Positions 1,843-63,664 of a stretch of 64,000 bases of DNA are shown one piece after another. The DNA comes from Minisyncoccota bacterium. GTDB lineage: Bacteria > Patescibacteriota > Minisyncoccia > Phycocordibacterales > UBA9973. Position 1 is the first letter of the stretch; each line of letters starts with the position of its first letter. The notes beneath the pieces are model-generated. The model saw only the letters and a program-made list of their open reading frames with translations, did not search any database and was not told where the DNA came from. Where the stretch lies: contig JBAZKU010000001.1 of NCBI GenBank assembly GCA_041650615.1, positions 249,216-313,215 on the forward strand, written 5' to 3'. The position numbers and the translations under genes are program-made.

Positions 1843-1891
1843 AAACGAAAAAATCCACTTGCGCAGATTTTTTCGTTTGCAATAAGTGGAT

Positions 1892-2299
1892 TTAATATCC
1901 TCTAATATATTTTTTAAACATGAGTTTCATCTCAATCATGCTTAAATTGTTAAACTCAGCCGGTACTAATTTTATTAGATACTGTTGCATTTTAATCCTT
2001 TGTTTCAGATTTAAACGAAGAATTAAAGAAGCTAAAAAAGACCCACCGAGAAAAAACAACATCATACTTACAAACATAATTACAAATTTTGTTGTTGTCT
2101 CGCTTTCTAAAGTTAATTTAAAACAAAAAGCAACAATCAAAAAAAGAAAAAGTGAAAAGAAAATTTGTAAATCCATAAAAAACGGATTCCAAAATTTTTT
2201 TTCAAATAATTTATCTTTGCCCCAAAAAAGGCAGACAAGAGACCCCAAAGAAAATAAAAAGGATGCTCCATATAAAAGACCGAAGAAAAAATTAAGCAT
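1892..2299 (-). CDS. hypothetical multi-pass membrane protein
   Basis: Hydrophobic segments (FLFSLGSLVCLFW, FFSLFLFLIVAFCF, FVSMMLFFLGGSFLASLIL). The overlapping + strand ORF is lysine-rich low complexity and probably spurious. Confidence 0.35.
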   Translation of the reverse strand: MLNFFFGLLYGASFLFSLGSLVCLFWGKDKLFEKKFWNPFFMDLQIFFSLFLFLIVAFCFKLTLESETTTKFVIMFVSMMLFFLGGSFLASLILRLNLKQRIKMQQYLIKLVPAEFNNLSMIEMKLMFKKYIRGY

Positions 2300-2427
2300 G
2301 ACGACTCTCCTCTAGTTAGTGAAAATATGTTTATTTCAATATACTAAATCATGTTTAGTATAACATATATAAAATAAAATATCAAGCAGAATTAGTGGTC
2401 TTCTTATTTCCTGTAACGTATAACCCT

Positions 2428-3159
2428 ACCCCATAGGTCTTGCCTATGGGGTACACCTCTGCTATATTTATATTATGTCTATAAGAAAAGTAGATTTTTC
2501 AGTAAATGAGTATTATCATCTCTACAACCGTGGGAATAGTAAACAAATAATTTTCAAAGACGAACAAGATTATAATCACTTTATGAAGTTACTTTTTTTG
2601 TGCAATTCTCAGAAAAGTATTGTGTATAGAGATATTTCAAAAAATACTTTTGATTTTGATCGAGAAGAAACTTTAGTTCATATAGGCGCGTATTGTCTTA
2701 TGCCAAATCATTTTCACCTACTAGTTAAAGAAGAGGTGGAAAATGGGATAAGCAGATTTATGCAAAAACTCACAACCGCTTACGTAATGTATTACAATAA
2801 AAAATATAAAAGAACTGGTGCACTATTTGAAGGAAAATTTAAATCTCAACATATTAGTATTGACAGATATATGAAATATTTATTTTCATATATACATTTA
2901 AATCCTATAAAACTAATTGAATCTGGTTGGAAAGAAAAAGGAATAAAAAACACAGAAAATGCTCTCAGGTATTTAAAAGCCTATCAATACTCAAGTTATC
3001 TAGATTACTTAAAAGAAGATCGTATTAAAAGAAAAATTCTTAATAAAAAAGAATTTCCTAAATATTTTTCATCTAAAAATTCTTTTGAAAGAGAGATCTT
3101 AGATTGGCTAAAATATAAAAAACAATAAGCCTTACCCCATAGGCAAGACCTATGGGGCT
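2428..3159 (+). mobile_element. RAYT/IS200-like unit: transposase gene flanked by inverted REP-like hairpins (ccccatagg-tcttg-cctatgggg / ccccatagg-caaga-cctatgggg)
   Basis: Perfect 9-bp stems at 2430..2452 and 3135..3157. The right hairpin is the reverse complement of the left one. Confidence 0.5.
2475..3128 (+). CDS. IS200/IS605-family Y1 HUH transposase (RAYT-like)
   Basis: HuH motif in 'CLMPNHFHLLV', a Tyr-rich segment 'AYVMYYNKKYKRTGALFEGKF', and the N-terminal 'YHLYNRGN' typical of the Y1_Tnp / REP-associated tyrosine transposase fold. Flanked by inverted hairpins. Confidence 0.6.
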   Translation: MSIRKVDFSVNEYYHLYNRGNSKQIIFKDEQDYNHFMKLLFLCNSQKSIVYRDISKNTFDFDREETLVHIGAYCLMPNHFHLLVKEEVENGISRFMQKLTTAYVMYYNKKYKRTGALFEGKFKSQHISIDRYMKYLFSYIHLNPIKLIESGWKEKGIKNTENALRYLKAYQYSSYLDYLKEDRIKRKILNKKEFPKYFSSKNSFEREILDWLKYKKQ

Positions 3160-3194
3160 ACATAGAGGCAGTGAAAGAGATATAAAGAAACTAA

Positions 3195-6035: not shown

Positions 6036-6043
6036 AAATGAAT

Positions 6044-6152
6044 CCCGTTAGAGGCCGCGGTCGCATACGGGAACAAAGAGATAAAAATATATTATAAGAT
6101 TAATTTATAGACAGGAAAGGTTTTAAGGCGAACGCGACCTGCCTCTAACGGG
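6044..6152 (+). mobile_element. MITE-like inverted-repeat element (TIR CCCGTTAGAG ... CTCTAACGGG) inserted exactly at the def start codon; flanking 6-bp direct repeats ATGAAT / ATGAAA
   Basis: 13-bp near-perfect terminal inverted repeats plus inner stem; the same TIR family occurs at 11839..11956 and 63665..63741. Confidence 0.45.
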
Positions 6153-6686
6153 ATGAAAGAAATAGTTCAAAAAAATGATAAAGTTTTGCGCAGGAATGTA
6201 AAAGAAGTGCCGATAGATGAAATCAAAACTCCTAAAATAAAAAAAATATTAAAAGAGATGTCGGATGCGTTAAAAGACCAAAGCGATGGTGTAGCCATTG
6301 CAGCGCCGCAAATAGGATATTCCTTGGCGATTTTTGTTGTCTCGGGGAAAATTTTTTATAAAGATTTTATTAGAGGAGGAATAGAGTTTGAAAAAATACC
6401 CAAAAGAGAAATTCCCAAGGATTTGATTTTTATTAATCCGAAAATTTCAAAATTGTCCCGTGAAAAAGATTGGCTATTGGAAGGCTGTCTTTCCGTGAGA
6501 TGGTTATACGGAAAAACCCATAGATCAAAAAAGGCAATGATTACGGCTTATGACGAAAATGGCAAAAAATTTCAAAGAGGCGCCTCCGGTCTTTTAGCTC
6601 AAATTTTCCAACATGAAACAGACCATCTAAAAGGTGTGCTTTTTATAGACCACGCCAAGGAAATAAGGGAAGAATTACCTAAATAA
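6153..6686 (+). CDS. def: peptide deformylase
   Basis: GVAIAAPQIGY, EGCLSV, QHETDHLKG metal-binding motifs. Confidence 0.9.
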   Translation: MKEIVQKNDKVLRRNVKEVPIDEIKTPKIKKILKEMSDALKDQSDGVAIAAPQIGYSLAIFVVSGKIFYKDFIRGGIEFEKIPKREIPKDLIFINPKISKLSREKDWLLEGCLSVRWLYGKTHRSKKAMITAYDENGKKFQRGASGLLAQIFQHETDHLKGVLFIDHAKEIREELPK

Positions 6687-11789: not shown

Positions 11790-11838
11790 TGATTCATTAT
11801 ACCAAAAATAATAAATCTGGTATAATTTATTTATGTAT

Positions 11839-11956
11839 CCCGTTAGAGATTAAATAGTTAAAATAAATTTCTCGGGGAAATGGGTATAAAAAATGTGTCG
11901 AAATTATAATGATTAAATTAAGAACGAAAATCTAAAAATTTTCTATCTCTAACGGG
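11839..11956 (+). mobile_element. MITE-like element (TIR CCCGTTAGAGAT ... ATCTCTAACGGG) inserted at the start codon of the EamA gene; perfect 6-bp target duplication ATGTAT
   Basis: 12-bp perfect TIRs; ATGTAT at 11833..11838 and 11957..11962; an extended -10 (TGGTATAAT) sits immediately upstream of the left duplicate. Confidence 0.45.
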
Positions 11957-12379
11957 ATGTATATAATATATGCATTGTTGGGAGCAATTATGGCAAGCGC
12001 GGGAACGATTTTTGCCAAATTGGGGCTGAAGGGAGTTGATGCGAATTTACTCACCGCCATTCGTGGTATTGTTATGGCTTTGATTGTTTCTATTGCCGCT
12101 TTATCTTTTGGAAAACTTACCATGACATCAATGTCGGCACTTTCCGCCAAGCAATGGATTTTCGTAATTCTTTCCGGACTGGGTGGGGCTTTATCTTGGA
12201 TTTTCTTTTATCAAGCTCTGTCTGTCGGACCGACAGTAGCTGTAACGGTTATTGATAAATTATCTTTGGTATTTACCGCTATTCTTGCTTTCGCAGTTTT
12301 GTCGGAAGGAATTACCCTCCAATCAGGACTAGGACTTGCCCTTGTGGTAGCTGGGACATTGCTTGTCGCTATACGCTAG
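11957..12379 (+). CDS. EamA/DMT-superfamily small membrane transporter
   Basis: 4-TM 140-aa protein, EamA-like sequence (GLGGALSWIFFYQAL). Confidence 0.5.
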   Translation: MYIIYALLGAIMASAGTIFAKLGLKGVDANLLTAIRGIVMALIVSIAALSFGKLTMTSMSALSAKQWIFVILSGLGGALSWIFFYQALSVGPTVAVTVIDKLSLVFTAILAFAVLSEGITLQSGLGLALVVAGTLLVAIR

Positions 12380-33135: not shown

Positions 33136-33346
33136 AACTTTTTATTGATGTTTAAATGAAACAAATATAAGACAAAAGCCCAAAATATGCATATAATCCT
33201 TAAAAATTTTCATAAATTCATTATATCATAAGATTAACTTATTGCCTGAATTAATAAAAAAAGAAGAAAGGTGGCAATTTATTGATAGAATAATGTGAAA
33301 TACAATAACTGGCAAAAAGTAAACAATAAGTTTAAAATAAATATAT

Positions 33347-33685
33347 ATGGAAAAAGTCCCAAAATTAAATAAAGGAGAAAAGGTTCCAATTAATTGGAGT
33401 CAATTTTTGATTGATAAAATGGATAAAGTCACCGAAGAAGAAATAAAAAAATTCAATGCTTTGCGCATTAAACCCGAGTATAAAGGAATCTTTGAAGAGG
33501 AGCCAACAGATATGCAAATAGGGTTGGTGGCTTTAGACAAGCTTACAGACAACGAGTTGAAAGCGTTAAGCGCTTATCAGAATGAAATATCAAAGAAAAA
33601 AGAATCAAGGGCTTTTCTTGTGGGATTTCATGATGTAGCCAGTAAATTAGCCGCCTTACGTGAAATTACCGGCCGTAAATTTTAA
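33347..33685 (+). CDS. hypothetical protein
   Basis: ORF only. Confidence 0.3.
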   Translation: MEKVPKLNKGEKVPINWSQFLIDKMDKVTEEEIKKFNALRIKPEYKGIFEEEPTDMQIGLVALDKLTDNELKALSAYQNEISKKKESRAFLVGFHDVASKLAALREITGRKF

Positions 33686-33792
33686 AGTGAGAAGTCGTTC
33701 AGACTCTAAAAGTCTTTTGGCTCGAATGAGATGTGTGAATAAGTTTGACAGGAAAAAAGTAAAAATATTTTTAAAAAGACCCGAATCGTAAA

Positions 33793-34773
33793 CTACGACT
33801 CGGGTTTCTTTTTTGATTTTTCTTGAATAATTCCTGCTATTGCTCTACGAAGGAGATTAAGATCCTCTTCTGCATCTTGAAGAATCATTACAATGGACTG
33901 CATTTCCTTGGTAGAACGTTCTTTAAAAATTCGTTCAACTTCTTGCTGTTTCATATCCAATATGGTTTCTGTATCAGTGCGAAGCCTATTAATTACTCTC
34001 ATAAGGATTTCATAATCTTTTGACGGCGACCTTCTATTTTTGGAGGTTCCCGCAAGTGATTCAGCTGTTCTGTTTGAACGGATATAATGGAGTGCTTTCC
34101 GTAACGGTAGTTTGTGTTCTATGATATAAGATGCTTTTTCTATCTGGGCTTCAGGAGTAAAATTAGAAAGTGCCACTCCTATTTGGAAAGATATTTTCCT
34201 CTCGTTCATAAAATCTTGCACCGTTTGGCAGAGACGCGTAAATCCGAGATATTGATATACCCAACTTTTTGAATGGGCGACTATTATTGCTACCTTTTCT
34301 ATGGCCGCACTATTCTCTATTTTCTCTTGTCGCATCAAGAAATCTCGAATATAGGCAAGAGCGAAAGTTATTTCAAGCGGTGTGTGAAGTTCACTTCCAA
34401 AGTTTGCTACAACTGAACAGATAAATTGTTCTTCTTTGGACTTTACATCCATCACATAAGCTAGAATAGTTGGTATATTACCAAGAAGACAAGAACGATA
34501 ACGGCGTTCTCCGTCTATCAATTCAAAACAATATTGTCCATCAATTATAGGACGCACCCATATAGGTCTCTTCTGTCCGACAGCTTTCATACTTTCCATG
34601 AGCGCTATTAAACCATCCTTGTTAAAATATTTTCTGGGTTGATCAGCAAAAGGACGGATAAGCCCTATGGGTATTTCGCATATTTTCGCTTCTGAAACAA
34701 CTACCTTAGATTTTAGATCTGAAATCGAATTTGTATGCAAAAGATCAAGCGCCACTTCCTGTTCAGGCTTCAT
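33793..34773 (-). CDS. ParB/Srx-like nuclease-domain protein
   Basis: ELIDGERRYRSC (GERRxR ParB box II). Confidence 0.5.
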   Translation of the reverse strand: MKPEQEVALDLLHTNSISDLKSKVVVSEAKICEIPIGLIRPFADQPRKYFNKDGLIALMESMKAVGQKRPIWVRPIIDGQYCFELIDGERRYRSCLLGNIPTILAYVMDVKSKEEQFICSVVANFGSELHTPLEITFALAYIRDFLMRQEKIENSAAIEKVAIIVAHSKSWVYQYLGFTRLCQTVQDFMNERKISFQIGVALSNFTPEAQIEKASYIIEHKLPLRKALHYIRSNRTAESLAGTSKNRRSPSKDYEILMRVINRLRTDTETILDMKQQEVERIFKERSTKEMQSIVMILQDAEEDLNLLRRAIAGIIQEKSKKKPES

Positions 34774-34945
34774 AGATATTCCCTTTCTTTATATTAATTT
34801 TATTGATTTATCATTGCCTTTGAGTGGAAACAAAATAATCCAACAAGTTTATTTTCAAAGACCAAAAATACTTGTATACACACTACAGTTTTAAAGTAAA
34901 AAGTCAAGAGCTCCGAATACGGAAAATACTATCTGGTCTTTTTAT

Positions 34946-35278
34946 TCACAAATTCCTTTTATACCCGTCTATTAAATATAAAATTCCCGGAATAATAGGA
35001 ACAGCCAAATTGACGCTAAGATTTGCTTCCGTCAAAAGTCCGACAACAAAACCGATTACGATTGAAATAACTATAAGCCACCCTCCGACTTTAGGATATT
35101 TCCAACCCAAAGCCAGGCCGATAAAAACCAATGGCATCATAGCCAGTGCGACATTTTCCCATAGAGAATAATTCGGATTAGCAAACGGCAAGGGATTGCC
35201 GTAACCGAAATAAAACGGCAAAGCAAAAATTAAAATGCATAATGCGAGTACTCGAGCAAACCATTTAATTGTTTTCAT
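34946..35278 (-). CDS. small 3-4 TM membrane protein
   Basis: Hydrophobicity only. Confidence 0.35.
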   Translation of the reverse strand: MKTIKWFARVLALCILIFALPFYFGYGNPLPFANPNYSLWENVALAMMPLVFIGLALGWKYPKVGGWLIVISIVIGFVVGLLTEANLSVNLAVPIIPGILYLIDGYKRNL

Positions 35279-35643
35279 ATACTATTATTATAGAATAATA
35301 CCAGATATAACTCAAACTAACTGGCTCCGGGGGTAGGGATATCTCCCTCGACTAAAATTTTTTCGTCAAAAAATTTTGTCTGGGCACCGACTCATGGATT
35401 TTTACTGCTGTAAAAATCACATTCCGTCGTTCGATCACCTACACGCACGACAAGCAGTTGTCGTGCTCGCCCGGAAGCATGAAACAAAAAGCCCATACGA
35501 AAGTATGAGTTTTTGTTTTTGCTCCCCTTACTGGACAAGTTCAGAACTGCAAACTGGACTAGAATTAAAAGCGATTTAGAGTTTAGTGGGATATTAGGGC
35601 TATTCCCTAAACTTTTACTTCAGAACTAATAAATAAATTATAC

Positions 35644-36090
35644 TCAAGTTCCTCTTCTAATTTTATTAGTTTCGTAGTGATTTTCAGTTATAGCAACTAC
35701 ATATAAAATCCTTTTTGGCTCAATATCAAAATAAAAAATACGACCAGTGCTTTGTAAAAAGAGTTCTCTTATTTCAATACCTTCATCAATCTTACTATAA
35801 AGCTTTTTATAATCACCCGAGTTTTCTACACTTTCATTTCTTATATTATTTCTTTGAAAATCAGCTCGTGTGTAAACCTTGGTTCCAATTTCTCTTAAAA
35901 TAGAAAGAGCTTTATTCCCTTTATTTTTACCAAGTATGTCTATTTCACAACAATTTTTGTTGTATTTTGAGAAAGATATTAAATAAGGTTTAGTTTCAGG
36001 TTCTTCTGTCTCTTGGGATACTTCGGTCACTTTCTGAGGTATCTCATTATAACTCTCAACCTGTGTAACCTCATCAGGAATTTCTGGCAT
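35644..36090 (-). CDS. hypothetical protein; C-terminus resembles a RelE/ParE-fold toxin (putative toxin partner of the Panacea protein)
   Basis: C-terminal GRIFYFDIEPKRILYVVAITENHYE pattern; 5-bp gap from the upstream Panacea gene. Confidence 0.3.
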   Translation of the reverse strand: MPEIPDEVTQVESYNEIPQKVTEVSQETEEPETKPYLISFSKYNKNCCEIDILGKNKGNKALSILREIGTKVYTRADFQRNNIRNESVENSGDYKKLYSKIDEGIEIRELFLQSTGRIFYFDIEPKRILYVVAITENHYETNKIRRGT

Positions 36091-36095
36091 AAGAG

Positions 36096-36596
36096 TTATT
36101 TTTTAGCTATTTCTAGTTTTTGAGAATAAAAGCTTTTCATTGTTTTGGGAGAAATTTCATTTTCTGAATTTTTAGAACTCTCTAGTCCTTCTCTAGCTTC
36201 TTTCCACGGTGTCTCATTATGTGTAAGCATTTCTAAATAATCAGCATCTAATCCACCATACACAGACCAAATCTCATCTAAAAGCTTTTTAGCTTCAGTA
36301 GGGATTGTTTTTATTAAAGTTGCGTCCGCTTCTTTTTGTATATAATTAAATCCAAAATCTTTGTATTTAACATACAAACTTTTGATTGCTGGTCCGTGAA
36401 CCCACGCTTCAATTTTTTCATTGAAAAGTTTTTGATTATTAAACACCAAAAACCAAGCTTGTGCATAGTAGACAAGTTTCTGAAGCTTTTTATTAGTTAT
36501 TCCTTTCTTATCTTTATTAGCTTTATCTATAAAGTATTCTGCGACAGTCAAAGCACTTACTTTTTTAGTGACTAAACTCATAATTGTATTATACAC
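36096..36596 (-). CDS. Panacea-domain (DUF4065, SocA-like) putative antitoxin
   Basis: KLQKLVYYAQAWFLVFNNQKLFNEKIEAWVHGP is characteristic of DUF4065. Confidence 0.5.
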   Translation of the reverse strand: MYNTIMSLVTKKVSALTVAEYFIDKANKDKKGITNKKLQKLVYYAQAWFLVFNNQKLFNEKIEAWVHGPAIKSLYVKYKDFGFNYIQKEADATLIKTIPTEAKKLLDEIWSVYGGLDADYLEMLTHNETPWKEAREGLESSKNSENEISPKTMKSFYSQKLEIAKK

Positions 36597-36661
36597 TTTT
36601 CTACTTAAATTTACAAAGAGGTGTTGATAAGTATTGTAAACTAAAGTAAACTATATAATAT

Positions 36662-38311
36662 ATGGCTTTTGAATTAGATACAGAAAATAAGAGCAAAAAT
36701 TATTTAGATGAAAAAGAGCTTTTTATTCTATATTATTTATCAAAAAATAAACACATTTCAACACAAGGAAGTAATGTCTTTAGACCTAATGAAAAAACTA
36801 TTTACCATAAACCTGACGGTCTTAATGACGTAGCTGAACTAGAAAAAAATCTTAATAAACATATATTGGAAGCTGAAGAAAAAAGAGAAAAAAAATTACA
36901 ATCTTCAATTGTAGCTAATTATTTAATTGGATTAGGTAGAACTTTTGATGAAAAAAGTTTTGCTGTCTTCGGAGATGCTGATTATAGTTTGGTTGAAGGC
37001 GGATTTTTGACAGATGATTTTCATAAGGAAATGTATGATTATTTAGCTTTATCAAAAGAAAAAAGAGAAAAAGATAAAAAATTAAACAAAGAACAAAAGA
37101 TATTTCTTGAGAATATAATTTCTAAAAAATTAGACCTCAATGACATAGAAACAAGGGTTAGATTTACTAAATTAGCTAACCCACCTATTAAATCTTATCA
37201 GGAAGCTATATTAAATAAAAAAGCAGAAAAAGAATTTATTGAGTTAGTAAATAAGTTAATCAAAGAACACGATGGCGGTAAATGGAATACCGAAGATGTT
37301 GAAAAATTTTTAGAGATATATTACAAGCACAACAAAGAACAATTTAAGAAAAATGTTACTACTCCAAGAACGTGGCTTTTTGAAGACAACCAAACCAAAC
37401 TTGCCAATCTTATTTTTGCACATACTGATTTTCATTTATTTATAAAAGATAATACAAAATTAAATAATTACTTAAAAGAATATATAAAACTTTTCAAAAA
37501 AGATGAGCTTGATAAATTAAGTAATAAAGGTCTAACTGGAAGCTTTTTTACAACAAGTAGATTGATACCTCTAAATAATCAACTTTGGGGCTTTGAAAAA
37601 CAAAAGGAAATTTTAGTACAACATATTGAAAAAAACTTTAATGAGTATAAAAAAAGTAGCTTACAAATAAGCCATCCATATTTTGAACCTGTTTATGAAG
37701 GCGATACAGAAGAAGGAATAACAGAGATTACTATATCTCCTAAAAATGAAGATGAGGCAGACCGATTTTTATTTGTGCATACAATAATAGCTCTTGAATA
37801 TAAGAAATTTCTTGAGATTAAAAGTTTATTTTATGGATATATGGATTTGTTTGATTTATATGACAGAGGTTTTGTATTTCAAATTAAATTACCTAAAGAA
37901 GTAAATAATAAAGATGAAGAAATAACAGAAATTTCAAAACCAGTTAAAAAATCAAACATTAAACCTTTCTTGGTAACAAAAAACAAAAAGGGTTATCTAA
38001 AGTTTGCAAAAAATAGCCCCAATATATTTATTGGGAGTATAACAACTCGGAAATTTAGACTACTACAAGCACTTATGGAGCCAATAGAAACCATTGGTAC
38101 AGCCAGAAAAATAGACAAAGTTTTTGAAGCAATTAAATTACCAAGAGATAACAATGACCCAAAACTAAAGGATAATTACCTTAGTCGTGACAGGAAGCTG
38201 TCAATTATTCAATACACAATAAAAGAAATACAAAAGATAAAAAAACTACAAAGAAAAATACACTTTTCGTTTGGTGAAAATAACCAAATAATCTGGGCAG
38301 ATTTTACTTAA
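36662..38311 (+). CDS. large hypothetical protein (549 aa), island cargo
   Basis: No recognisable motif; Lys/Glu-rich. Confidence 0.35.
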   Translation: MAFELDTENKSKNYLDEKELFILYYLSKNKHISTQGSNVFRPNEKTIYHKPDGLNDVAELEKNLNKHILEAEEKREKKLQSSIVANYLIGLGRTFDEKSFAVFGDADYSLVEGGFLTDDFHKEMYDYLALSKEKREKDKKLNKEQKIFLENIISKKLDLNDIETRVRFTKLANPPIKSYQEAILNKKAEKEFIELVNKLIKEHDGGKWNTEDVEKFLEIYYKHNKEQFKKNVTTPRTWLFEDNQTKLANLIFAHTDFHLFIKDNTKLNNYLKEYIKLFKKDELDKLSNKGLTGSFFTTSRLIPLNNQLWGFEKQKEILVQHIEKNFNEYKKSSLQISHPYFEPVYEGDTEEGITEITISPKNEDEADRFLFVHTIIALEYKKFLEIKSLFYGYMDLFDLYDRGFVFQIKLPKEVNNKDEEITEISKPVKKSNIKPFLVTKNKKGYLKFAKNSPNIFIGSITTRKFRLLQALMEPIETIGTARKIDKVFEAIKLPRDNNDPKLKDNYLSRDRKLSIIQYTIKEIQKIKKLQRKIHFSFGENNQIIWADFT

Positions 38312-38628
38312 TTTCCTTGATGCCTAGAGGGAAAAATTAAAATGGCTTTTGATATGCACAGAGGGATATTATAAACCCTCTTATTTTTTTTATTTATAAA
38401 TAATAAATAAAAACAAAAAACCCTCTCGTCCCCTCTAGCTGATTTTTGCTTAGAGGGTTCTTCATAATGCTTTTATGCAGGATAAGAAAGAAACAAAAAA
38501 AGAATTAAATCCAAAACTATTGGATTTATCGCCTGAAGATAGTCGTGATTTAGGTAGTTTCTTTACCTTGCTTATAAAAATAGATAAGCGAGTAAATCCT
38601 GCAAATTATCAACTTAATAAAAAAGAAT

Positions 38629-39747
38629 ATGATTGATACAGTCCGTCTCTTAATACCAAAAGAGAAAATGAGTTTCTTGTCTAGTGTGTCAAATTGGGAA
38701 CTTTATTCAAAAACAGAACAATACTCTAAATTTGTTCGCAATCCAAGTAAGGCAGAAAAAGAAACTGGAAATTACTTTCCTAGATTAACAGGATATAAGA
38801 GAAAGTATTCAATGGATGCAAATGTAATACTTGAGTTCTCTGTGCCTAAGCTACTATATCTAAATAATCTTGATGAACTAACAGACAAAAATTTTAATAT
38901 GGTCATAGAAGCTCTACAAGATAGATTAAAAGATATGGGAGTATTACTGACAAAATATGTCATAGAAAACGCCTCAGTTAGCTCGGTTCATTTCTCCAAA
39001 AATATACTTCTCAAAGATGGATATACAGCAACACATATTATATCCGAATTAGGAAAAATAGATTTAAGAAAAAGTTTTGATTTTGCAAAAACTAGATTTC
39101 TAAATGACGGACAGAGTATCTATGCTCACACAAACGCACACGAACTTGTTATTTACGACAAGGTTGCTGACTTAAAGAAAGATAAAAAACGAGCAATAGA
39201 TAAAGACCAAACCCTATATCAAAGAAGTTTGTTTGCTGAATTAAATAAAGATAAAGAATTAAAGGAAATTCTTCGCATTGAAATTCGTCTAAATCAAAAA
39301 CAGAAAATGAATAAAATCTTGGAAAATTTAGGATATGAAAAAAATCCGAAATTTAAGGATGTGTTTAATTCAGAGATGAGTAAGAAAGTAGTAAATGAGT
39401 ATTGGAAGAAATTGATATTAGACAGAAACTCTGGACTGTTTTCAATCAATCTTAGTATTAAAGATACACTGCAAGTTATGTTTTTAACGGATAAAAAATT
39501 AAAACCAAACAAAGCAGTTTATTTATTAGGACTGTATATACTTGCTAAAGATGAAAACGGTATTAGACAATTAAGAAGTATTGTTGAAAAACGAGTACAC
39601 GAACGAACTTGGTATCGTATGGCAAAAGAATTAAGATACGCAAACGAGATTATAACCAAAAATAACCTTAGAGATTGGGTTAAACAAATCAATAAAACCC
39701 TTGACGACTTCAAGCCATATAGGCATAAAGAGTTGTTCACTGATTAA
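38629..39747 (+). CDS. hypothetical protein (372 aa), island cargo; possibly a replication-initiator-like protein
   Basis: No firm motif; the replication-initiator guess is weak. Confidence 0.3.
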   Translation: MIDTVRLLIPKEKMSFLSSVSNWELYSKTEQYSKFVRNPSKAEKETGNYFPRLTGYKRKYSMDANVILEFSVPKLLYLNNLDELTDKNFNMVIEALQDRLKDMGVLLTKYVIENASVSSVHFSKNILLKDGYTATHIISELGKIDLRKSFDFAKTRFLNDGQSIYAHTNAHELVIYDKVADLKKDKKRAIDKDQTLYQRSLFAELNKDKELKEILRIEIRLNQKQKMNKILENLGYEKNPKFKDVFNSEMSKKVVNEYWKKLILDRNSGLFSINLSIKDTLQVMFLTDKKLKPNKAVYLLGLYILAKDENGIRQLRSIVEKRVHERTWYRMAKELRYANEIITKNNLRDWVKQINKTLDDFKPYRHKELFTD

Positions 39748-39785
39748 AAGTTGCTATGTAAAGTATTGTCAAGTATAATATAAAT

Positions 39786-39998
39786 ATGAAATATAAAATA
39801 TGTTCACAAAAATTAAGAGACGGAAGATGGAAACCTGCATATTTACCTCCTATCAAACAGGTTGGAACAGAAAGTTTGGAATTTTCTGAACCTACAGAAA
39901 TTGATAAACATTTTCAAACTAAAGAAGATGCCGATAGTTGTGCATTATTACACTTAACCAAAAAAGGAATTAAAAATGAAGAAATTGAATACAATTAA
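39786..39998 (+). CDS. small hypothetical protein
   Basis: 70-aa ORF. Confidence 0.25.
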   Translation: MKYKICSQKLRDGRWKPAYLPPIKQVGTESLEFSEPTEIDKHFQTKEDADSCALLHLTKKGIKNEEIEYN

Positions 39999-40164
39999 AG
40001 AATTTTATAAAGCTGAAGATTTAGCAGAAAAATTAGATGTAAACATTATGACTATTTATCGCTATATCAAAGCTGGCAAATTAAAAGCGTACAAAATTGG
40101 TCGGGAGTATAGAATTGATAAGGTTGAATTTAATGCTTTTCTTAAAAAAGTAAGCACAAGATAG
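39976..40164 (+). CDS. excisionase-family HTH DNA-binding protein (candidate recombination directionality factor)
   Basis: IMTIYRYIKAGKLKAYKIGREYRI matches MerR/Xis-type HTH_17. Confidence 0.55.
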   Translation: MKKLNTIKEFYKAEDLAEKLDVNIMTIYRYIKAGKLKAYKIGREYRIDKVEFNAFLKKVSTR

Positions 40165-40167
40165 GTT

Positions 40168-42162
40168 ATGAATACACTTACAAACTCAATTGAATACTTA
40201 GATATAAATGAAACAGTTTCAATACTAGGAGTGTCTTCAGCAACAATAAGAAATTGGATTAAATATAATTACATAACACCAAAAGAAACACCAAACAAGA
40301 AACTGGTATTTCATTCCAACCAAATCAGAGAGCTTAAAGAAAGAATTGCTTCAGGAGAAGTAAATCGTTTGAACAAAAGAGCTAACAAAAAGAACTCGTG
40401 CAACACTTTTATACCTGATGAATATGCAGATAATCAAGAAGTAATAAAACTAGTTCAGGAAATCCTAGAAAATCATAAAATAAACAAACTACAGATAGAT
40501 AAAGTATTACTAGTCCTAGCAATAAACCTACTAAAAAATAATAACCTCGTTAATTATAAAAAGTTATCTAATCTAGCAGAATTAGATTACAAGAACGAAA
40601 TAATTAAGAACGAAATAAATTGGTGGTTAGAAAAAATAGAAGATAAAACAATAGATAAAAATTATGCAGAATTATTGAGTATTACTATCCCTAAAATAAC
40701 AGATATTCTAGGGTTAGTTTATCAATCCCTATCAACAGAAGGAAGTAAGGCAGAAGGCGGTTCATATTACACACCAAAAAAAGTGGTTGATGAAATTATT
40801 GATAATTATGTAGAAAAAAATCACACAGTATTAGACCCTTGTTGCGGTACAGGACAATTTATACTTTCAATTGCAAGAAAAGTAAAAGACCCAACTAAAA
40901 TATGGGGTTTTGATATTGATGAAAAAGCTGTAAGATTAGCCAGATTAAATTTAATACTTCATTTTTCTAATGTTGATTTTGAGCCACATATTTATCATAA
41001 AAACACCTTAACTGAAATAAACTCTTCTGGTCTATTTTCAGAAAACAATATACCAATGTTTGATGTAATTGCTACTAATCCGCCTTGGGGTGTACATTTT
41101 TCAAAAAGTGAAACTTATGAATTACAAAATCTATTTCCTGTAATTAAATCAGGAGAAGCATTCTCTTACTTCATATATAAAGGTCTTGAACTGCTAAAAG
41201 AAAATGGTATCCTATCCTTCATACTTCCAGAGTCAATACTTAATATAAAAACACACAGAGATATTCGTGAAGTACTTGTAAATAAGACAACAGTAAAAAA
41301 AGTAAAATACCTAAATCGTGTATTTAAGAATGTATTTACTCCAGTAATCAGACTTGATGTTATAAATAAAAAACCTCATTTCACAAATAAAATTAAAGCA
41401 GAAAAAGATGGTTCTACATACGAAATTGAACAAACGAGAATACAGAACAACCCTGACCGTATTCTTAATGTTTTTACAGATACAGCAGATATATCCCTGT
41501 TTGATAAAACTTATGAAATACCACATACAACACTAAAAGATAAGGCAGAATGGGCTCTAGGGGTTGTTACGGGTGATAACAAAAAACATTTATCAGACAA
41601 AAAAACAAAAACGAATGAACCAATTTTGACAGGAAAAGACATTAAGAAGTTTACCGCAATTTCAGCTTCAAACTTTATTGAGTTTAATCCTGATAATTTT
41701 CAACAAGTTGCTCCTGAATACAAATATCGTGCTAAAGAAAAATTGATTTATAAGTTTATATCAAAGGAACTTGTTTTCTCCTATGATGACAAACAAACGC
41801 TAACATTAAACAGTGCAAATATACTTATACCCAAAGTTGATAACTATCCTATAAAAACCATTTTAGCATTATTCAATTCTTCTTTATATCAATTACTTTA
41901 TCAAAAAAAGTTTGGGGCAATTAAAATACTGAAAGGAGATATTGAACAACTACCACTTCCAATAATAGACAAAGGAAAGCACAAAGACATTGAAAGAATT
42001 GTAAACAAACTGCTAGATAATACAAAACCTACCGAAAATAGAAAAAGAGTTTATCTGGAATTAGATGATTATATAATGAATTTGTTTAGTTTGAAGAAAG
42101 AAGAAAAAGATTATATAAGAAAATCAATTAAAGTGTCGGACAAATTATTAAATAATATATAA
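40168..42162 (+). CDS. N6-adenine DNA methyltransferase (gamma class, Eco57I/TaqI-like) with N-terminal HTH
   Basis: Motif I VLDPCCGTGQF, motif IV NPPWG; N-terminal ATIRNWIKYN HTH; C-terminal target-recognition region. Confidence 0.7.
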   Translation: MNTLTNSIEYLDINETVSILGVSSATIRNWIKYNYITPKETPNKKLVFHSNQIRELKERIASGEVNRLNKRANKKNSCNTFIPDEYADNQEVIKLVQEILENHKINKLQIDKVLLVLAINLLKNNNLVNYKKLSNLAELDYKNEIIKNEINWWLEKIEDKTIDKNYAELLSITIPKITDILGLVYQSLSTEGSKAEGGSYYTPKKVVDEIIDNYVEKNHTVLDPCCGTGQFILSIARKVKDPTKIWGFDIDEKAVRLARLNLILHFSNVDFEPHIYHKNTLTEINSSGLFSENNIPMFDVIATNPPWGVHFSKSETYELQNLFPVIKSGEAFSYFIYKGLELLKENGILSFILPESILNIKTHRDIREVLVNKTTVKKVKYLNRVFKNVFTPVIRLDVINKKPHFTNKIKAEKDGSTYEIEQTRIQNNPDRILNVFTDTADISLFDKTYEIPHTTLKDKAEWALGVVTGDNKKHLSDKKTKTNEPILTGKDIKKFTAISASNFIEFNPDNFQQVAPEYKYRAKEKLIYKFISKELVFSYDDKQTLTLNSANILIPKVDNYPIKTILALFNSSLYQLLYQKKFGAIKILKGDIEQLPLPIIDKGKHKDIERIVNKLLDNTKPTENRKRVYLELDDYIMNLFSLKKEEKDYIRKSIKVSDKLLNNI

Positions 42163-42167
42163 AACTT

Positions 42168-42905
42168 ATGGAATACTTAAAAGAAAAATTAAATAAACTT
42201 ATTGATGAACTTTCATCAGACAAAAGAGATATAATAAGGTCTCGTTTATCTGATTTGGTTTCTGTTTATCCTTTTAATGAATATGAATATATAATTTCAT
42301 CCTTAATGGGTTTTGGAAAAATAACACTAGATGATTACTATGAGATTAGAGACGACTATGTATCTCGCAATATGTATCTATATATCTTTGAGATAGCTTC
42401 CCCAAGAGGATTTGGAGAATTATGGGCACAAGGTCATATTAAAGAATTAGAACCTGATTTTATAAAACCTACTAAAAAGGTGGATGAAAATTATAGCGGA
42501 CAATATGATTTAGCTTTACCAATAGAAAATAAATTTATCACAATAGAAGTTAAAGCATCTAGGGCTGTTGATGGTGGTAGTTCTGAACCATTGTTTGTTA
42601 AAGCCCTTTCTTATGAATGCAAGAGCCCTTTTTGGATGAACTTTCAACAAATTAAACCAGCTTGTGCTGATGTGTTTTTATGGGTTGCTGTTTGGAGAGA
42701 TGTTATAAAATACTGGGTTCTATCTTCAGATGAAGTTAAAAACAATAAATACTATTCAAAAGGTCAACATCGTGGAAATAATGGTGAAGGTCAGTTGCAT
42801 ATAAAAGAAGATAATATAAATGAGTTCAAAAAATATGAGGTTAAATCTAATAAACTTAAAGAAGCAGTAATAGATGCTTACAAAAGACAAAAAGGGATAA
42901 AATAA
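42168..42905 (+). CDS. hypothetical protein, candidate PD-(D/E)xK restriction endonuclease partner of the methyltransferase
   Basis: ...YDLALPIENKFITIEVKAS... fits D-x(n)-ExK; 5-bp gap after the methyltransferase gene. Confidence 0.3.
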   Translation: MEYLKEKLNKLIDELSSDKRDIIRSRLSDLVSVYPFNEYEYIISSLMGFGKITLDDYYEIRDDYVSRNMYLYIFEIASPRGFGELWAQGHIKELEPDFIKPTKKVDENYSGQYDLALPIENKFITIEVKASRAVDGGSSEPLFVKALSYECKSPFWMNFQQIKPACADVFLWVAVWRDVIKYWVLSSDEVKNNKYYSKGQHRGNNGEGQLHIKEDNINEFKKYEVKSNKLKEAVIDAYKRQKGIK

Positions 42906-42908
42906 ATT

Positions 42909-44426
42909 ATGAAAGCAATAATCGTAGCAAGAGTATCAACAGACGAACAAAAAGAGAACTCCCCAAGTGCTCAACTATTCAGAATGCAACATTATTGTGA
43001 AAATCGTGATTTTATAATTTCTAAAGAATTTAGTTTTATAGAAAGTGCTTACAAAATAAAAAGAGATGAATTTGATAACATCATTGAGTTTATTGAGGAT
43101 TGTATAAAGAGAAAAGAAAAAATAGCTGTATGTTTTGATAAAGTAGATAGATTATCAAGAAACATTTTTGATAAAAGAGTGGCTTGGTTATATGAAAAAG
43201 CAATCAATAATGAAATTGAACTTCATTTCGTATCAGATAGCCAAGTCATTAACGATAAGATGAATGCAGGCGATAAATTTGCTTTTGGAATGAAACTAGG
43301 GCTTTCTAAATACTATTCTGATGCTATTAGTGATAATGTAAAACGTGCCTTTGAGCAAAAACGAAGAAATGGCGAATGGACAGGTGCAGTTCGCTTGGGC
43401 TATCTTAATGTACCTGCTGATATAGAAAAACGATTGAGAAAAGACATAATCATAGACCCTGAACGGGGATATTTAATAACTAAAATGTTTGAAATGTATG
43501 CAACTGGTAATTATTCACTAGAAACTATAAGAAAAGAAATTACTGATTTAGGATTACGAAGTTTGAAAGAATTTAAGTTGTCAAAAAGTTGCGTAGAAAA
43601 TATACTAAAAGACCCATTTTATTGTGGAATAGCAACTTCAAAGAAATATGAGCAAACTTGGGTACATAAATATCCTCGTTTAATAACTCAAGAACTATTT
43701 GAGAGATGTAAAGAAATCAGAGAAGGTAAAAATAAAAAACGCTCTAAATTTGTTTCAAAAGAATTTATATTCAAAGGACTTCTTACCTGTAAAAATTGTG
43801 GTTGTATGTTAAGCCCTGAAATACATAAAAAGAAAAGTGGTTTGACCTATGTTTACTATTCCTGCACTAATTCTAAAGGTATATGTAAACGCCAGTATGT
43901 ACCTGAAACAGCCCTTCTTAAGCCAATTTACAAGGTTTTAGACCAGTTTGAAGGTATTACAGAAGAAGCCCAGAATACTATCGTTAAAGAGCTTAGGGAA
44001 ACTACAGAAGCAGAGGTCACCTTTCATAAAGCCCAAGTAAATCGTATTAGAGCAGAATACGACCAGTTAAAAAAGAAAGATGATAGGTTGCTTGAAATGT
44101 ACCTTGAAGAAGATAAGAGTATTACTAAGGACATCTATGACAAAAAACATCAAGAGTATCACGACAAGATACAACTTTTGGAAATTGAATTATCAGAACA
44201 TACAAATGCCGATTATGACTATCAAACCACTGTGGCTACAGTACTTTCTGTCGCTCGCAGAGTAAAGGAAATCTTTGAAAGTTCTGAACCATACGAAAAA
44301 AGAGCAATTTTGAATTATTTACTTCAGAACCCTGTTGTAAATGAGAAAAAGCTAGAGTTTACAATACGTTCTCCATTTAATTTAGTGCTTGAACTAGCTA
44401 CTAGTCCTAACTGGCTCCGGGGGTAG
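42909..44426 (+). CDS. large serine recombinase (integrase)
   Basis: N-terminal resolvase domain IIVARVSTDEQ (catalytic Ser), recombinase domain, Zn-ribbon CKNCGC...CTNSKGIC, coiled-coil; the 3' end overlaps the tRNA-Asn 3' end. Confidence 0.8.
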   Translation: MKAIIVARVSTDEQKENSPSAQLFRMQHYCENRDFIISKEFSFIESAYKIKRDEFDNIIEFIEDCIKRKEKIAVCFDKVDRLSRNIFDKRVAWLYEKAINNEIELHFVSDSQVINDKMNAGDKFAFGMKLGLSKYYSDAISDNVKRAFEQKRRNGEWTGAVRLGYLNVPADIEKRLRKDIIIDPERGYLITKMFEMYATGNYSLETIRKEITDLGLRSLKEFKLSKSCVENILKDPFYCGIATSKKYEQTWVHKYPRLITQELFERCKEIREGKNKKRSKFVSKEFIFKGLLTCKNCGCMLSPEIHKKKSGLTYVYYSCTNSKGICKRQYVPETALLKPIYKVLDQFEGITEEAQNTIVKELRETTEAEVTFHKAQVNRIRAEYDQLKKKDDRLLEMYLEEDKSITKDIYDKKHQEYHDKIQLLEIELSEHTNADYDYQTTVATVLSVARRVKEIFESSEPYEKRAILNYLLQNPVVNEKKLEFTIRSPFNLVLELATSPNWLRG

Positions 44427-44486
44427 GGATCGAACCTACGACCAATCGCTTAACAGGCGACCGCTCTACCGCTGAGCTACCCCGGA
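44412..44486 (-). tRNA. tRNA-Asn (GTT), CCA encoded
   Basis: Manual fold: acceptor TCCGGGG/CCCCGGA, D arm GCTC-AGCGGTA-GAGC, anticodon loop CTGTTAA, T arm GTAGG-TTCGATC-CCTAC. Confidence 0.8.
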
Positions 44487-44728
44487 ATATTTACTATTTT
44501 GTTTTTTATAAACTTTCTTCCCGCACAACTTTTAAAATACTTTTCTCTTTTTCTTGCATCGCTTATATTTGCTAATTCTTCTGTATAAATTATACTCCAC
44601 GGCATATATTGTTTTGTATAATAACTTAACCCTGAATTGTGTTCCAATAAACGACGTTTCAAATTTGTTGTACTACCAACGTATAATTTTGGATATTTTA
44701 AGCTTTTTAATATATAAACATAAGCCAT
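44477..44728 (-). CDS. small GIY-YIG nuclease-superfamily protein
   Basis: YVYILKSLKYPKLYVGSTTNLKRRLLEHN; its stop codon lies within the tRNA-Asn 5' end. Confidence 0.7.
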   Translation of the reverse strand: MAYVYILKSLKYPKLYVGSTTNLKRRLLEHNSGLSYYTKQYMPWSIIYTEELANISDARKREKYFKSCAGRKFIKNKIVNIPG

Positions 44729-50868: not shown

Positions 50869-50945
50869 TGGTGGACCCTACAGGACTCGAACCTGCCACC
50901 TCCTCATTGCAAATGAGGCGCTCTAGCCAGATGAGCTAAGGGCCC
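50869..50945 (-). tRNA. tRNA-Ala (TGC), CCA encoded
   Basis: Manual fold: GGGCCCT acceptor with G3:U70, anticodon loop TTTGCAA, T loop TTCGAGT. Confidence 0.8.
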
Positions 50946-51043
50946 AATATTTATACAGACCTTATTCTATCTTATTTTTCTAATAATGCAAATTTAGCCA
51001 ATAATATTTGTATTTTTTTATGTTTCAGTTATTATTTTTATAA

Positions 51044-51114
51044 GGGCCTGTAGTATAGTAGTAACACGCGTCCATGGCATGGACGAATCGGGGGTGCGAT
51101 TCCCCCCAGGTCCA
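51044..51114 (+). tRNA. tRNA-Ala (GGC), atypical D and T loops
   Basis: GGGCCTG acceptor with G3:U70, anticodon loop ATGGCAT; D loop AGTAGTA lacks the G18G19 pair, T loop TGCGATT has G at position 55, and the D stem has one mismatch. Confidence 0.55.
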
Positions 51115-51198
51115 CATTAAAGGGCCTATATCAAAATCCGATATAGACCCTGCGTTCGGACGAAATGAAATTTTCATATTTCATTTCGCTCCTCACTT

Positions 51199-51269
51199 GG
51201 GCCTATAGTAAAGTGGTATTACGCGGCATTCGCATTGCCGAGGCGCGAGTTCGATTCTCGCTAGGTCCA
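51199..51269 (+). tRNA. tRNA-Ala (CGC)
   Basis: GGGCCTA acceptor with G3:U70, D arm GTAA-AGTGGTA-TTAC, anticodon loop TTCGCAT, T loop TTCGATT. Confidence 0.75.
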
Positions 51270-51312
51270 CATTAGACGATTTCTAACTTTATCTAAAATT
51301 GACCACCAAAAC

Positions 51313-51338
51313 AAAAACCCGCCTTACGGCGGGTTTTT
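51313..51338. terminator. Rho-independent terminator aaaaacccgcc-ttac-ggcgggttttt after the tRNA-Ala pair
   Basis: Perfect 7-bp GC stem flanked by an A-run and a T-run. Confidence 0.65.
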
Positions 51339-51538
51339 GGGCACTTATGTTGTTTACGATAAATGTGAATCTTACCTCACACTCACAAAACGAGTATAGC
51401 ATACCTCAAATAAAAAAGCAAGCCCCCACGCCCTTTTTTATGACGTGCCTTTGGCACATTGTATTCAATATCATAAAAATAGGTGTGGGGGCTTGCTTGT
51501 TATATTTACTTTTCTGGCCATTTGTTCTATACTCCAGG

Positions 51539-51844
51539 TTGGTCCTGTATTGGATAGTTGCGTCTCGCCTTGGCGGGATGAGGAAAGTCCGAACACATAG
51601 TTTCGACTCAGGTCGAGACAAACGTAGCGGGTAACACCCGTCAGGAGCAATCCTAGGGTTGAGAACAGTGACGAACCGATTAAGTTCGGGTGAAACGGCA
51701 AAATACCTACGCGTGTGCAAGATCGTGCTCCGACCTCGGTTGGAGAGAATCGCTTGAGCCTGAAAGTGATTGAAGGCCTAGATAAATAACTATCAATCTG
51801 ACTTCGGTCAGATTACAGAATTCGGCTTATAGATACAAGACCAA
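51539..51844 (+). ncRNA. rnpB: RNase P RNA (bacterial type, reduced)
   Basis: P1 pairing TTGGTCCTGTAT / ATACAAGACCAA; conserved regions GAGGAAAGTCCGAACAC, GGGTGAAACGG, ACAGAATTCGGCTTATAG. Confidence 0.7.
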
Positions 51845-51852
51845 GAATATGA

Positions 51853-63283: not shown

Positions 63284-63664
63284 TTACTTTTTTATTTTTA
63301 TAACTTCTTCCAATTTTTGCACTATTTCTTTCGGAGTATTTTCCATTTTTACCAGATAAAGGCTTACCCCGAGTTCGGAAAACTCTTTTTCATGTTCTTT
63401 CTCAAAAGAATTGGTAAGCACCACCACCGGCACCTCTTTTAATTCTTTGTAAGTGCGAATTTTCCTAAGTAAATCCAAACCGTTCATTTTAGGCATCATT
63501 ATATCTAGGGCTATTAGATCAGGCGGTGGATTCATTACCTCTAAAAGTTTTATTGCCTCTTCCCCATCATGAGCTACTAGAACTTCGTGATTTTCAAGAC
63601 GAAAGATACGCTCATACATTCGAGTAATAAAAACATCATCATCAATAATAAAAATTTTACTCAT
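63284..63664 (-). CDS. single-domain response regulator (CheY-like)
   Basis: IIDDDVF, IALDIMMP, VVLTN, YLVKM. Confidence 0.8.
   Translation of the reverse strand: MSKIFIIDDDVFITRMYERIFRLENHEVLVAHDGEEAIKLLEVMNPPPDLIALDIMMPKMNGLDLLRKIRTYKELKEVPVVVLTNSFEKEHEKEFSELGVSLYLVKMENTPKEIVQKLEEVIKIKK

Follow-up and report, generated by a model that had tools for sequence, protein, structure and literature searches.

The subject of this report is a short inverted-repeat element at the start codon of an EamA-family transporter gene in a 64,000-nucleotide stretch of DNA from a Minisyncoccota bacterium (assembly GCA_041650615.1, contig JBAZKU010000001.1, positions 249,216 to 313,215 of the forward strand; hereafter, the window). 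We suggest that this element, referred to as copy 2, is a non-autonomous palindromic mobile DNA element of the kind of MITEs (miniature inverted-repeat transposable elements) and repetitive extragenic palindromic (REP)-like hairpins, and that its family is apparently undescribed; we give this reading a probability of about 75%. In this model, the element would move in trans by means of an enzyme encoded elsewhere, and insertion would duplicate 4 bases of a near-palindromic target, R-TNNA-Y, with A-TGRA-N as the target of the subgroup at start codons. The element's terminal A (or G) together with the duplicated TG would rebuild ATG (or GTG) with the full reading frame kept. In other words, it is the A or G at the element's end, followed by the TG that starts the duplication, that would restore the start codon at the right end. 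The left copy would retain the promoter and the old start codon, which would now open a short open reading frame (ORF) that stops within the element.

The insertion at the EamA start codon

On the upstream side of copy 2, the extended -10 box TGGTATAAT (11818-11826, forward strand), a putative promoter element, is separated by a spacer of 6 bases from an ATG at 11833. This ATG belongs to the hexamer ATGTAT, which is present twice, at 11833-11838 and 11957-11962. The inserted element spans 11838-11957 and consists of a 118-bp core (11839-11956) and a terminal T...A pair. The core begins with the 5' arm CCCGTTAGAGAT (11839-11850, forward strand), in which the first 9 bases are the family signature and the next 3 covary with the 3' arm, and it ends with the 3' arm ATCTCTAACGGG (11945-11956, forward strand), the complement of CCCGTTAGAGAT. 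The two arms are perfectly complementary, form 14 pairs when the flanking AT is counted, and enclose 94 AT-rich bases. Near the 3' end, the sub-terminal hairpin GAAAATCTAAAAATTTTC followed by TAT (11926-11943, forward strand) is the mark of the 'sub1' subfamily, which has the consensus ACGGAAATCTAAAGATTTCC-TAY. Overall, copy 2 is predicted to fold into one long closed stem (-30 kcal/mol, z = -2.9). The left ATG opens the mini-ORF MYPVRD* (ATG TAT CCC GTT AGA GAT TAA; 11833-11853, forward strand), which runs through the 5' arm to the TAA at 11851-11853. Thus, the 12-bp perfect inverted repeats, the -10 box with its N6 spacer and the mini-ORF are all as an earlier note on this DNA had described them. 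Copy 2 is not in frame, as 118 + 6 is not a multiple of 3 and a stop follows after 6 codons. The EamA gene itself (11957-12379, forward strand; 140 aa; Pfam PF00892) is intact, with a regenerated start and an N-terminus conserved across homologues. Copy 2 is not an assembly artefact, since four further contigs, assembled separately (from ENA, JGI and two Logan runs), carry an identical 211-base region.

The state before insertion is seen in four related genomes. The syntenic loci (L124, L126, L130 and L127; loci outside the window carry L numbers and their own coordinates) encode EamA proteins that are 86-91% identical to that of the window, have a single ATGTAT and no inverted repeat, and read TGnTATAAT-N6-ATGTATATAAT. 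This matches the promoter-ATGTATATAATA arrangement that the earlier note had proposed as the ancestral one, and it also answers the concern raised there that homologous loci without the inverted repeat might carry ATGTAT twice. The window locus is longer by exactly 124 bases, i.e. 120 bases of element and the 4 duplicated bases TGTA. The N-terminus MYIIYALLGA is conserved in 15 of 15 aligned EamA homologues, and therefore the right ATG is the true EamA start. In all five loci the -10 box lies at a fixed distance of 6 bases from the ATG, which fits a leaderless gene and, at copy 2, a leaderless promoter that has been displaced, as previously proposed. In sequence terms, these comparisons show that codons 1-2 of the EamA gene, which is probably leaderless, were the site of a recent insertion of the element.

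A second element, copy 1, tells the same story about timing. This copy, a member of the 'sub2' subfamily with a 109-bp core at 6044-6152 (element 6043-6153, forward strand), lies between hisS and def, with ATGAAT as its left and ATGAAA as its right flank. Neither copy 1 nor copy 2 is present in a relative that is ~90% identical in protein, which points to recent activity; at the L132 locus of this relative, hisS and def overlap as ATGA, and the empty site of copy 1 reads AAAATGAAAAAAATAG (ATGAAA). Since the left flank in the window is ATGAAT, the sixth base (T) of the left hexamer is borne by the element.

This empty site and the hexamer statistics of the family bear on the length of the duplication. 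For these statistics, 61 start-class copies and 77 other copies were re-extracted from the loci found. Among the start-class copies, the left and right hexamers match at positions 1 to 6 in 46, 53, 51, 53, 52 and 23 of the 61, respectively. The base before CCCG is complementary to the base after CGGG in 59/61 start-class and 72/77 other copies. The right start codon takes its first base from the end of the element and not from the target, as is seen, for example, in ATGAAC...GTGAAG and GTGAAT...ATGAAT. Thus, judging from the hexamer statistics and the empty site of copy 1, the element is most likely Y-CCCGTTAGA...TCTAACGGG-R with a 4-base TNNA duplication, rather than one of 6. Copy 2 by itself is compatible with a 4-base and a 6-base duplication alike. 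As a consequence, the perfect ATGTAT repeat of the earlier note is present on both sides, but the true duplication is probably TGTA. On the basis of the family statistics and the single ATGTAT at the empty sites, its left copy would be at 11834-11837 and its right copy at 11958-11961, where it restores ATG with the element's terminal A (11957). In the family, the duplicated tetranucleotides are TGAA (29), TGGA (9) and TGAG (9), and also TGTA and TTTA. The flanking hexamers are near-palindromic, and therefore the direct hexamer repeat also lengthens the stem.

The hairpin family and its landing sites

The family was defined by the pattern CCCGTTAGA-N41..101-TCTAACGGG, so that the 9-base arms are required by the search pattern itself. 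Three matches in the window compared with none in 100 shuffles argue that the pattern is not a product of chance, and a looser search of the 64-kb window gave no further copy. Copy 3 has a 77-bp core at 63665-63741 (element 63664-63742, reverse strand), is located at the start codon of a response-regulator gene and is flanked by ATGAGT on both sides. A diverged copy 4 with the arms CCCATTAAA and TTTTAACGGG lies ~5.6 kb outside the start of the window (L232, 4406-4472), giving four copies within ~82 kb of this genome. The three window copies adjoin the starts of def, EamA and the response-regulator gene, and copy 4 is likewise at a start codon, that of a ribulose-phosphate 3-epimerase gene, with ACAAGT as its other flank. 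Copies 1 and 3 also fold into long closed stems (z = -5.6 and -5.1). The interiors of the three window copies are unrelated and only their ends align.

In a scan of 185,579 species genomes, a family element was found at 119 loci or more, in Saccharibacteria, many Parcubacteria lineages, Omnitrophota, Planctomycetota (including Brocadia), Desulfobacterota and others. The listed loci and the window together hold at least 138 elements of ~62-132 bases, and later searches added shorter ones, of 30-47 bases. In general, the elements read RTNNAY-CCCGTTAGA...TCTAACGGG-RTNNAY. Alignment of the family shows that conservation is confined to the hairpin foot, Y-CCCGTTAGA...TCTAACGGG-R, while the predicted stem above it covaries and the interior is free. 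Specifically, the conserved core is a hairpin of ~45 nt (as in L013) with the arm, three covarying pairs, an asymmetric bulge (CGC opposite T) and an inner stem-loop; in longer members, additional DNA is found either in the apical loop, as in 'sub2' (copy 1), or at the 5' bulge, as in 'sub1' (copy 2). The sub1 hairpin is found at the same place, with compensatory stem changes, in L001, L002, L033, L040, L052, L063 and L094. Among 15 subfamily members, 97.9% of stem cells are paired and 7 pairs are compensatory, a result that none of 500 shuffles equalled; this score has to be read in the light of the 9 pairs fixed by the search pattern and of the kinship among the sequences, which inflates it. 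At arm positions 10-12, more than 20 different complementary triplets occur. The sense strand has 21 G.U pairs and 14 A.C mismatches, so that an excess of G.U is unclear and the folded form could be DNA or RNA. Near-identical copies (97-100%) are present at different sites of one genome in L043 and L035, another sign of recent activity.

Several individual members deserve a description of their own. L035 (2167-2258 and 4942-5033) and L024 (2-93) hold three identical 92-bp copies from one genome. Their identity runs ~10-12 bases past the hexamers (GCATATAAAC...GTAAACATACAG), so that the repeat unit of that lineage is longer and has the hexamer in its interior; two of these copies, in inverted orientation, bracket the gene of a 686-aa secreted protein. 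The minimal members L054 (5123-5160), L089 (2207-2236) and L013 (45 nt) are bare hairpins of 30-45 nt, and examples such as CCCGTTAGAAATT-GATG-AATTTCTAACGGG illustrate that arms and loop alone can be a complete unit. In L110 (4972-5128), the space between the arms is exactly filled by a complete tRNA-Thr(CGT) gene (CCCGTTAGA-tRNA-TCTAACGGG), with a 3' tRNA fragment and another right arm downstream and a degenerate 5' tRNA fragment upstream; by its arrangement, this looks like an element that carries a tRNA gene and has inserted into a resident tRNA gene. In L061 (1916-2102), the right end of the element shares 2 bases with the 5' end of a tRNA-Leu gene, and the left flank extends the stem by its complementarity to the acceptor strand of the tRNA.

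Where do the copies land? In 63 of these 138 elements, the right end adjoins the start (ATG or GTG) of an ORF of ≥60 codons, and an ATGNAY copy lies on the left side. The placement differs with the terminal pair. Copies ending in T...A are at start codons in 51 of 63 cases, compared with 8 of 67 for copies ending in C...G. The window contains 978 ATGNR sites, including 39 start codons and 92 non-coding sites, and if insertions were tolerated in these two classes only, start codons would account for an expected 30% of them (51/63 observed, P = 6e-17). Thus, the description 'start-codon-targeting' in the earlier note holds, in statistical terms, for the T...A-ended subgroup but is too narrow for the family as a whole, which also occupies stop codons, intergenic DNA and in-frame positions within genes. 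The second codon begins with AA, GA or AG in 85% of cases against a background of 41%. No link to leaderless genes was detected, as a -10 box 5-8 bases upstream of the left ATG is present in 19/61 copies compared with 17/62 window genes. The concentration at start codons probably results from survival together with a preference, specific to the lineage, for the hexamer ATGAA, and in a genome that is 89% coding the start codon would be one of few insertion sites that spare a gene, i.e. a 'safe haven'.

The C...G-ended copies often lie at the 3' end of a gene with a stop codon (G-TAA-AC) as part of the hexamer, or are intergenic. Eight copies are read through in frame inside genes. For instance, in L043 (three copies) and L048, elements sit in prepilin genes exactly at the cleavage motif G|FT(L/F)IE: the hexamer GTTTAC encodes G-F-T, whole codons are inserted and the cleavage motif is restored downstream, leaving 28 or 39 extra leader residues (PLES...SSLTG; L043 2943-3104 and 6122-6199, L048 901-1011). 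The three copies in L043 are 97-100% identical, two of them are in tandem, and they lie within highly diverged pilin paralogues. Such near-identity of elements in highly diverged pilins means that one short sequence was hit independently, and recently, more than once, and these repeated hits on GTTTAC argue for real target specificity. Because the hexamer is rebuilt on both sides, start codons, stop codons and the peptidase cleavage site all survive insertion.

Alternative explanations, mode of movement and possible effects on the downstream gene

Three alternatives would offer a different explanation of copy 2. Inverted arms around a hexamer recall a site-specific recombinase site of the integron attC, dif or lox model with the hexamer as the crossover. 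Joined ends would give TCTAACGGG-RTNNAY-CCCGTTAGA, i.e. inverted arms around a 6-base spacer; moreover, tandem copies share one hexamer (L043, L058), the window encodes a large serine recombinase, and GTTAGA and TCTAAC have what we take to be a resemblance to attC core boxes. We nevertheless regard this explanation as very unlikely. The boxes are in the order GTTRRR 5' and YYYAAC 3', opposite to that of attC (GTTAGA 5' / TCTAAC 3' here versus RYYYAAC 5' / GTTRRRY 3'), and an attC site was rejected on this ground. The hexamers are a mosaic, with position 1 on the right and position 6 on the left borne by the element and positions 2-5 duplicated, unlike a whole 6-base overlap or a 2-base serine crossover, and on this pattern the serine- and tyrosine-recombinase models were rejected. 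In addition, target sites lack arms, and 30-120 bp are too short for a double-stranded circle. No integron integrase is present among the Pfam-annotated genes of the window (~1-44.4 and 51.9-64 kb, plus two ORFs between).

An explanation that we find still less credible is programmed translational bypass, in which ribosomes would start at the left AUG, translate codon 2, hop over the hairpin to the right codon 2 and continue into the native EamA. AUG UAU is identical on both sides and the stem starts at the take-off codon, a layout with some likeness to phage T4 gene 60 and to the byp elements of yeast mitochondria. At the third base of codon 2, however, only 23/61 copies match (AAU versus AAA in copy 1), and hopping was rejected on these mismatches; furthermore, the take-off codon is followed by CCC and not by a stop, the gap measures 118 nt and the nascent peptide would have just 2 residues. 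The least probable alternative, which we consider virtually untenable, is a native cis-regulatory RNA of EamA (a riboswitch or leader) rather than an insertion. Copy 2 does lie between promoter and gene and folds into a closed stem, and EamA/SMR-type genes are often associated with riboswitches. But the element is missing from four orthologous loci that retain the promoter, which refutes a native leader RNA, and the same arms precede unrelated genes. Searches of the window, the copy 2 region and 7 loci against Rfam (gathering score; E-values up to 10) returned only tRNAs and noise.

If copy 2 is a mobile element as we propose, two modes of movement can be considered. The 4-base duplication and the near-palindromic target fit a DDE enzyme, while a HUH mechanism that acts on a single strand would suit the covarying hairpin, its bulge and the lineage specificity of the tetranucleotides. 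According to the latter, which is a rival for the mode of movement only and not for the identity of the element, a Y1 (HUH) transposase of the IS200/IS605 or RAYT (REP-associated tyrosine transposase) type would move the element as a folded single strand. There would then be no true duplication; rather, the element would enter the DNA on the 3' side of a tetranucleotide such as TGAA or TGTA, and its own 3' end would carry the same one. Y1 enzymes recognise a strand by hairpin features (IS608, REP/RAYT) such as the covarying hairpin with the conserved asymmetric bulge (CGC opposite T) seen here. Single hairpins of 30-45 nt as minimal members, the lineage specificity of the tetranucleotides and the orientation bias of ~18:4 (P = 0.002), which the sub-family displays relative to the downstream gene, also speak for this mode, as does an intact Y1 gene in the window that is missing from the relative without copies 1 and 2. 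This gene (2475-3128, forward strand) encodes an IS200/RAYT-like protein of 217 aa with intact HUH motif and tyrosine, which scores above the cut-off for Pfam Y1_Tnp and below that for the NCBIfam 'REP-associated tyrosine transposase'. It is flanked by the hairpins TACCCCATAGG-TCTTG-CCTATGGGGTA at 2427-2453 and their inverse at 3133-3159. The 1.3-kb block at 1843-3161, including an unannotated ORF of 131 aa, is bracketed by a ~25-nt duplicate of the dnaE 3' end (1819-1843 and 3162-3187) and is missing from L132, which also lacks copies 1 and 2.

As the cognate enzyme, the window Y1 protein was rejected, for its hairpins, though built in a similar style, have TACCCCATAGG and not CCCGTTAGA, with matches at 6 of 10 foot positions, and viral homologues have no arms nearby; from its sequence and setting it is a candidate enzyme only. 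Five Y1 homologues each have their own, different hairpins. Against the single-strand mode also stand a density of Y1 genes in element-bearing loci that is no higher than in control loci, the presence of the repeat in reverse-orientation copies and the near-palindromic target, which suits a symmetric double-strand enzyme. On balance, we regard transfer by a Y1 enzyme as possible but doubtful.

A number of observations weigh against a non-autonomous mobile element as the whole explanation. An autonomous element with the same ends was not found in 0.9 Mb of element-bearing loci: when end pairs 0.7-3.5 kb apart with matching flanks were sought in all loci, only housekeeping genes lay between them. 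Viral contigs gave 16 pattern matches, mostly unrelated, and no transposase. A 10-base terminus that is kept across phyla with covariation above it is atypical of DDE-derived MITEs and fits recognition of a folded single strand, and it is unusual for a recent burst from one master that the window copies share only their ends. Copy 3 is far better conserved than neutral sites, as described below, which is not predicted for a purely selfish element. A safe haven based on selection leaves the scarcity of T...A copies in non-coding DNA partly unaccounted for. Lastly, a subgroup has the left flank ACTTGT and a right ATG with no duplication (L057, L091, L099 and L116; ACAAGT at copy 4).

How is EamA expressed past the insertion? 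All left-ATG copies encode M-x-P-V-R with a variable tail (5-42 codons in total), and 46 of 50 stop within the element. The promoter and the old start presumably now drive the mini-ORF, whose peptide is not conserved past PVR and is, by this comparison of sequences, a by-product of the arm. The right arm places a TAA 7 bases before the AUG in one frame, while ATGA gives an overlapping TGA in another, and therefore upstream translation ends at or before the real AUG. This AUG is at the foot of the stem and has no Shine-Dalgarno sequence. We speculate that its translation may need mini-ORF ribosomes that melt the 5' arm, or cleavage of the stem by RNase III; a weak internal promoter would be a third plausible route. 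The earlier suggestion of a promoter inside the element found no support, as a consensus scan of copy 2 was negative and -10-like hexamers have no preferred position in 48 family elements.

These features raise the idea of a co-opted translational control module, in which the mini-ORF would run into a stem that hides the real AUG, the output of the downstream gene would hinge on mini-ORF translation or on stem processing, and copies at start sites would be kept by selection. The most direct evidence is the orthologue of copy 3 in another species (L149, 524-600), where the response regulator is 86% identical in protein and the element is identical at 73 of 77 positions. In this pair, identity is 95% for the element, compared with 81.6% for the gene and 64% at third codon positions (P = 1e-10), and 2 of the 4 substitutions keep the predicted inner hairpin paired via G.U. 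The stopping of any upstream frame by the right arm at or just before the real start and the orientation bias relative to the gene point in the same direction. However, this is a single orthologous pair, and the first 46 bases of the response-regulator gene are 100% identical between L149 and the window, which makes a recombination tract an equally good explanation. Thus, the conservation of copy 3 hints at constraint or at recent exchange of the block as equal alternatives. In the gene maps of two other contigs with response-regulator orthologues, the upstream space is -8 and 51 bases, too short for a 77-base element, and none of 80 metagenome loci of response-regulator homologues (best 53% identical) has the element. 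Further evidence against a selected module is that copies 1 and 2 are recent and missing from close relatives, that the start-site elements of the orthologous genes in L002 and L038 share only the arms, that the length of the mini-ORF is not conserved, and that 21 G.U against 14 A.C is no clear sense-strand excess. Altogether, we consider co-option rather unlikely.

Elsewhere in the window, an integrated island at ~33300-44500 lies beside a tRNA-Asn gene (44412-44486). It encodes the large serine recombinase (42909-44426), an N6 DNA methyltransferase/Eco57I-like protein (40168-42162) and ParB (33793-34773), and also contains an HTH_17 excisionase-like gene, a SocA/Panacea antitoxin-like gene and several ORFs without a Pfam match. 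At 50869-51845, three tRNA-Ala genes (TGC, GGC and CGC) are located directly 5' of the RNase P RNA gene (51542-51845).

Meaning and comparison with known systems

Landing on a start codon and restoring it makes a harmless target of a gene's most sensitive triplet in an 89%-coding genome. A question for Patescibacteria is how an AUG is expressed at the foot of a 14-20-pair stem, with no Shine-Dalgarno sequence and past a displaced leaderless start. The foot that is common to Patescibacteria, Omnitrophota, Planctomycetota and Desulfobacterota implies a shared enzyme or frequent transfer among uncultivated bacteria of groundwater and sediment. The elements are also an annotation hazard, as they create false short ORFs, shifted starts and in-frame inserts (28-39 residues in prepilin leaders). 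More tentatively, and at odds that we judge to be low, we speculate that they could represent a cross-phylum mobile class that homes to gene-boundary signals (start codons, stop codons and the prepilin G|FT site) via a heritable, element-encoded hexamer rebuilt on both sides, possibly with selected translational switches at start codons, where a leaderless or coupled mini-ORF would open the stem over the real AUG, a self-installing 5' cassette and a programmable Y1 (HUH) enzyme. The searchable literature, with subscription journals outside its coverage, contained no account of an element that lands on a start codon and restores it.

Four of the five features by which MITEs are defined were found. 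Copy 2 is short and non-coding (118-bp core, with variable mini-ORFs in the family that share only the arm-encoded M-x-P-V-R), it has terminal inverted repeats of 12-14 perfect pairs, duplication of the target is seen by comparison with empty sites (four for copy 2, L132 for copy 1), and there are multiple, partly near-identical copies (four in ~82 kb; 97-100% identity in L043 and L035); the fifth feature, a parent insertion sequence, was not found in 0.9 Mb of loci or in viral contigs. Elements derived from IS200/IS605 (PATE) insert 3' of a fixed tetranucleotide with no duplication and have separate hairpins at their two ends. Here, a 4-base duplication and an element-borne 3' tetranucleotide fit the data alike, the tetranucleotide varies, and minimal members are a single hairpin. 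With REP/REPIN-RAYT systems, the family shares a hairpin unit, a conserved foot, a variable but compensated stem, minima of 30-45 nt and, in the window, a RAYT-like Y1 gene. Unlike in these systems, there is no GTAG, a flanking repeat is present, copies are not extragenic and the Y1 gene has different hairpins; a strict REP/REPIN was rejected on the absence of GTAG, the RTNNAY flanks, the copy at a start codon, the duplication and the differing Y1 hairpins.

Correia elements (CREE/NEMIS, in Neisseria) and ERIC are small (about 100-150 bp) and non-coding, with stems that fold in transcripts; duplication of a short target, many copies near genes and an effect on the 5' ends of mRNAs are further traits, and Correia stems are cut by RNase III. 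The elements described here are likewise small and non-coding, form a terminal-repeat hairpin with a short duplication, occur in many copies near genes and would alter the 5' ends of mRNAs. Correia elements, however, have a TA duplication and a species-specific repeat of 26 bp and are confined to one genus, whereas here 10 terminal bases are conserved across phyla, the stem covaries, the target is TNNA, and insertion occurs at a start codon that is rebuilt. Rickettsia palindromic elements (RPEs) are also palindromic and tolerated in frame, as in the 8 read-through cases in relatives, but copy 2 is out of frame, RPEs are restricted to Rickettsia, and kinship in sequence is not expected. The ends, which start with CC(C), and the 4-base duplication T...A presumably give a resemblance to IS1380 and piggyBac (the latter being TTAA-CCCTAGAAAG), which we take as a lead only. 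Unlike in these, no such transposase is found beside the ends, the duplication is not a fixed TTAA, and covariation of the arms is unexpected for recognition of a double strand.

The choice of a site that spares the host is reminiscent of the safe havens of Tn7 at glmS, of group IIC introns after terminators and of insertion sequences in REP elements. In contrast to those, the haven here is a start codon, a stop codon or a prepilin cleavage motif, and it is reconstituted on both sides. Thus, what distinguishes this family from the known systems is the 10-base foot shared across phyla with covariation above it, the reconstitution of the hexamer on both sides, and the concentration of one subgroup at start codons.

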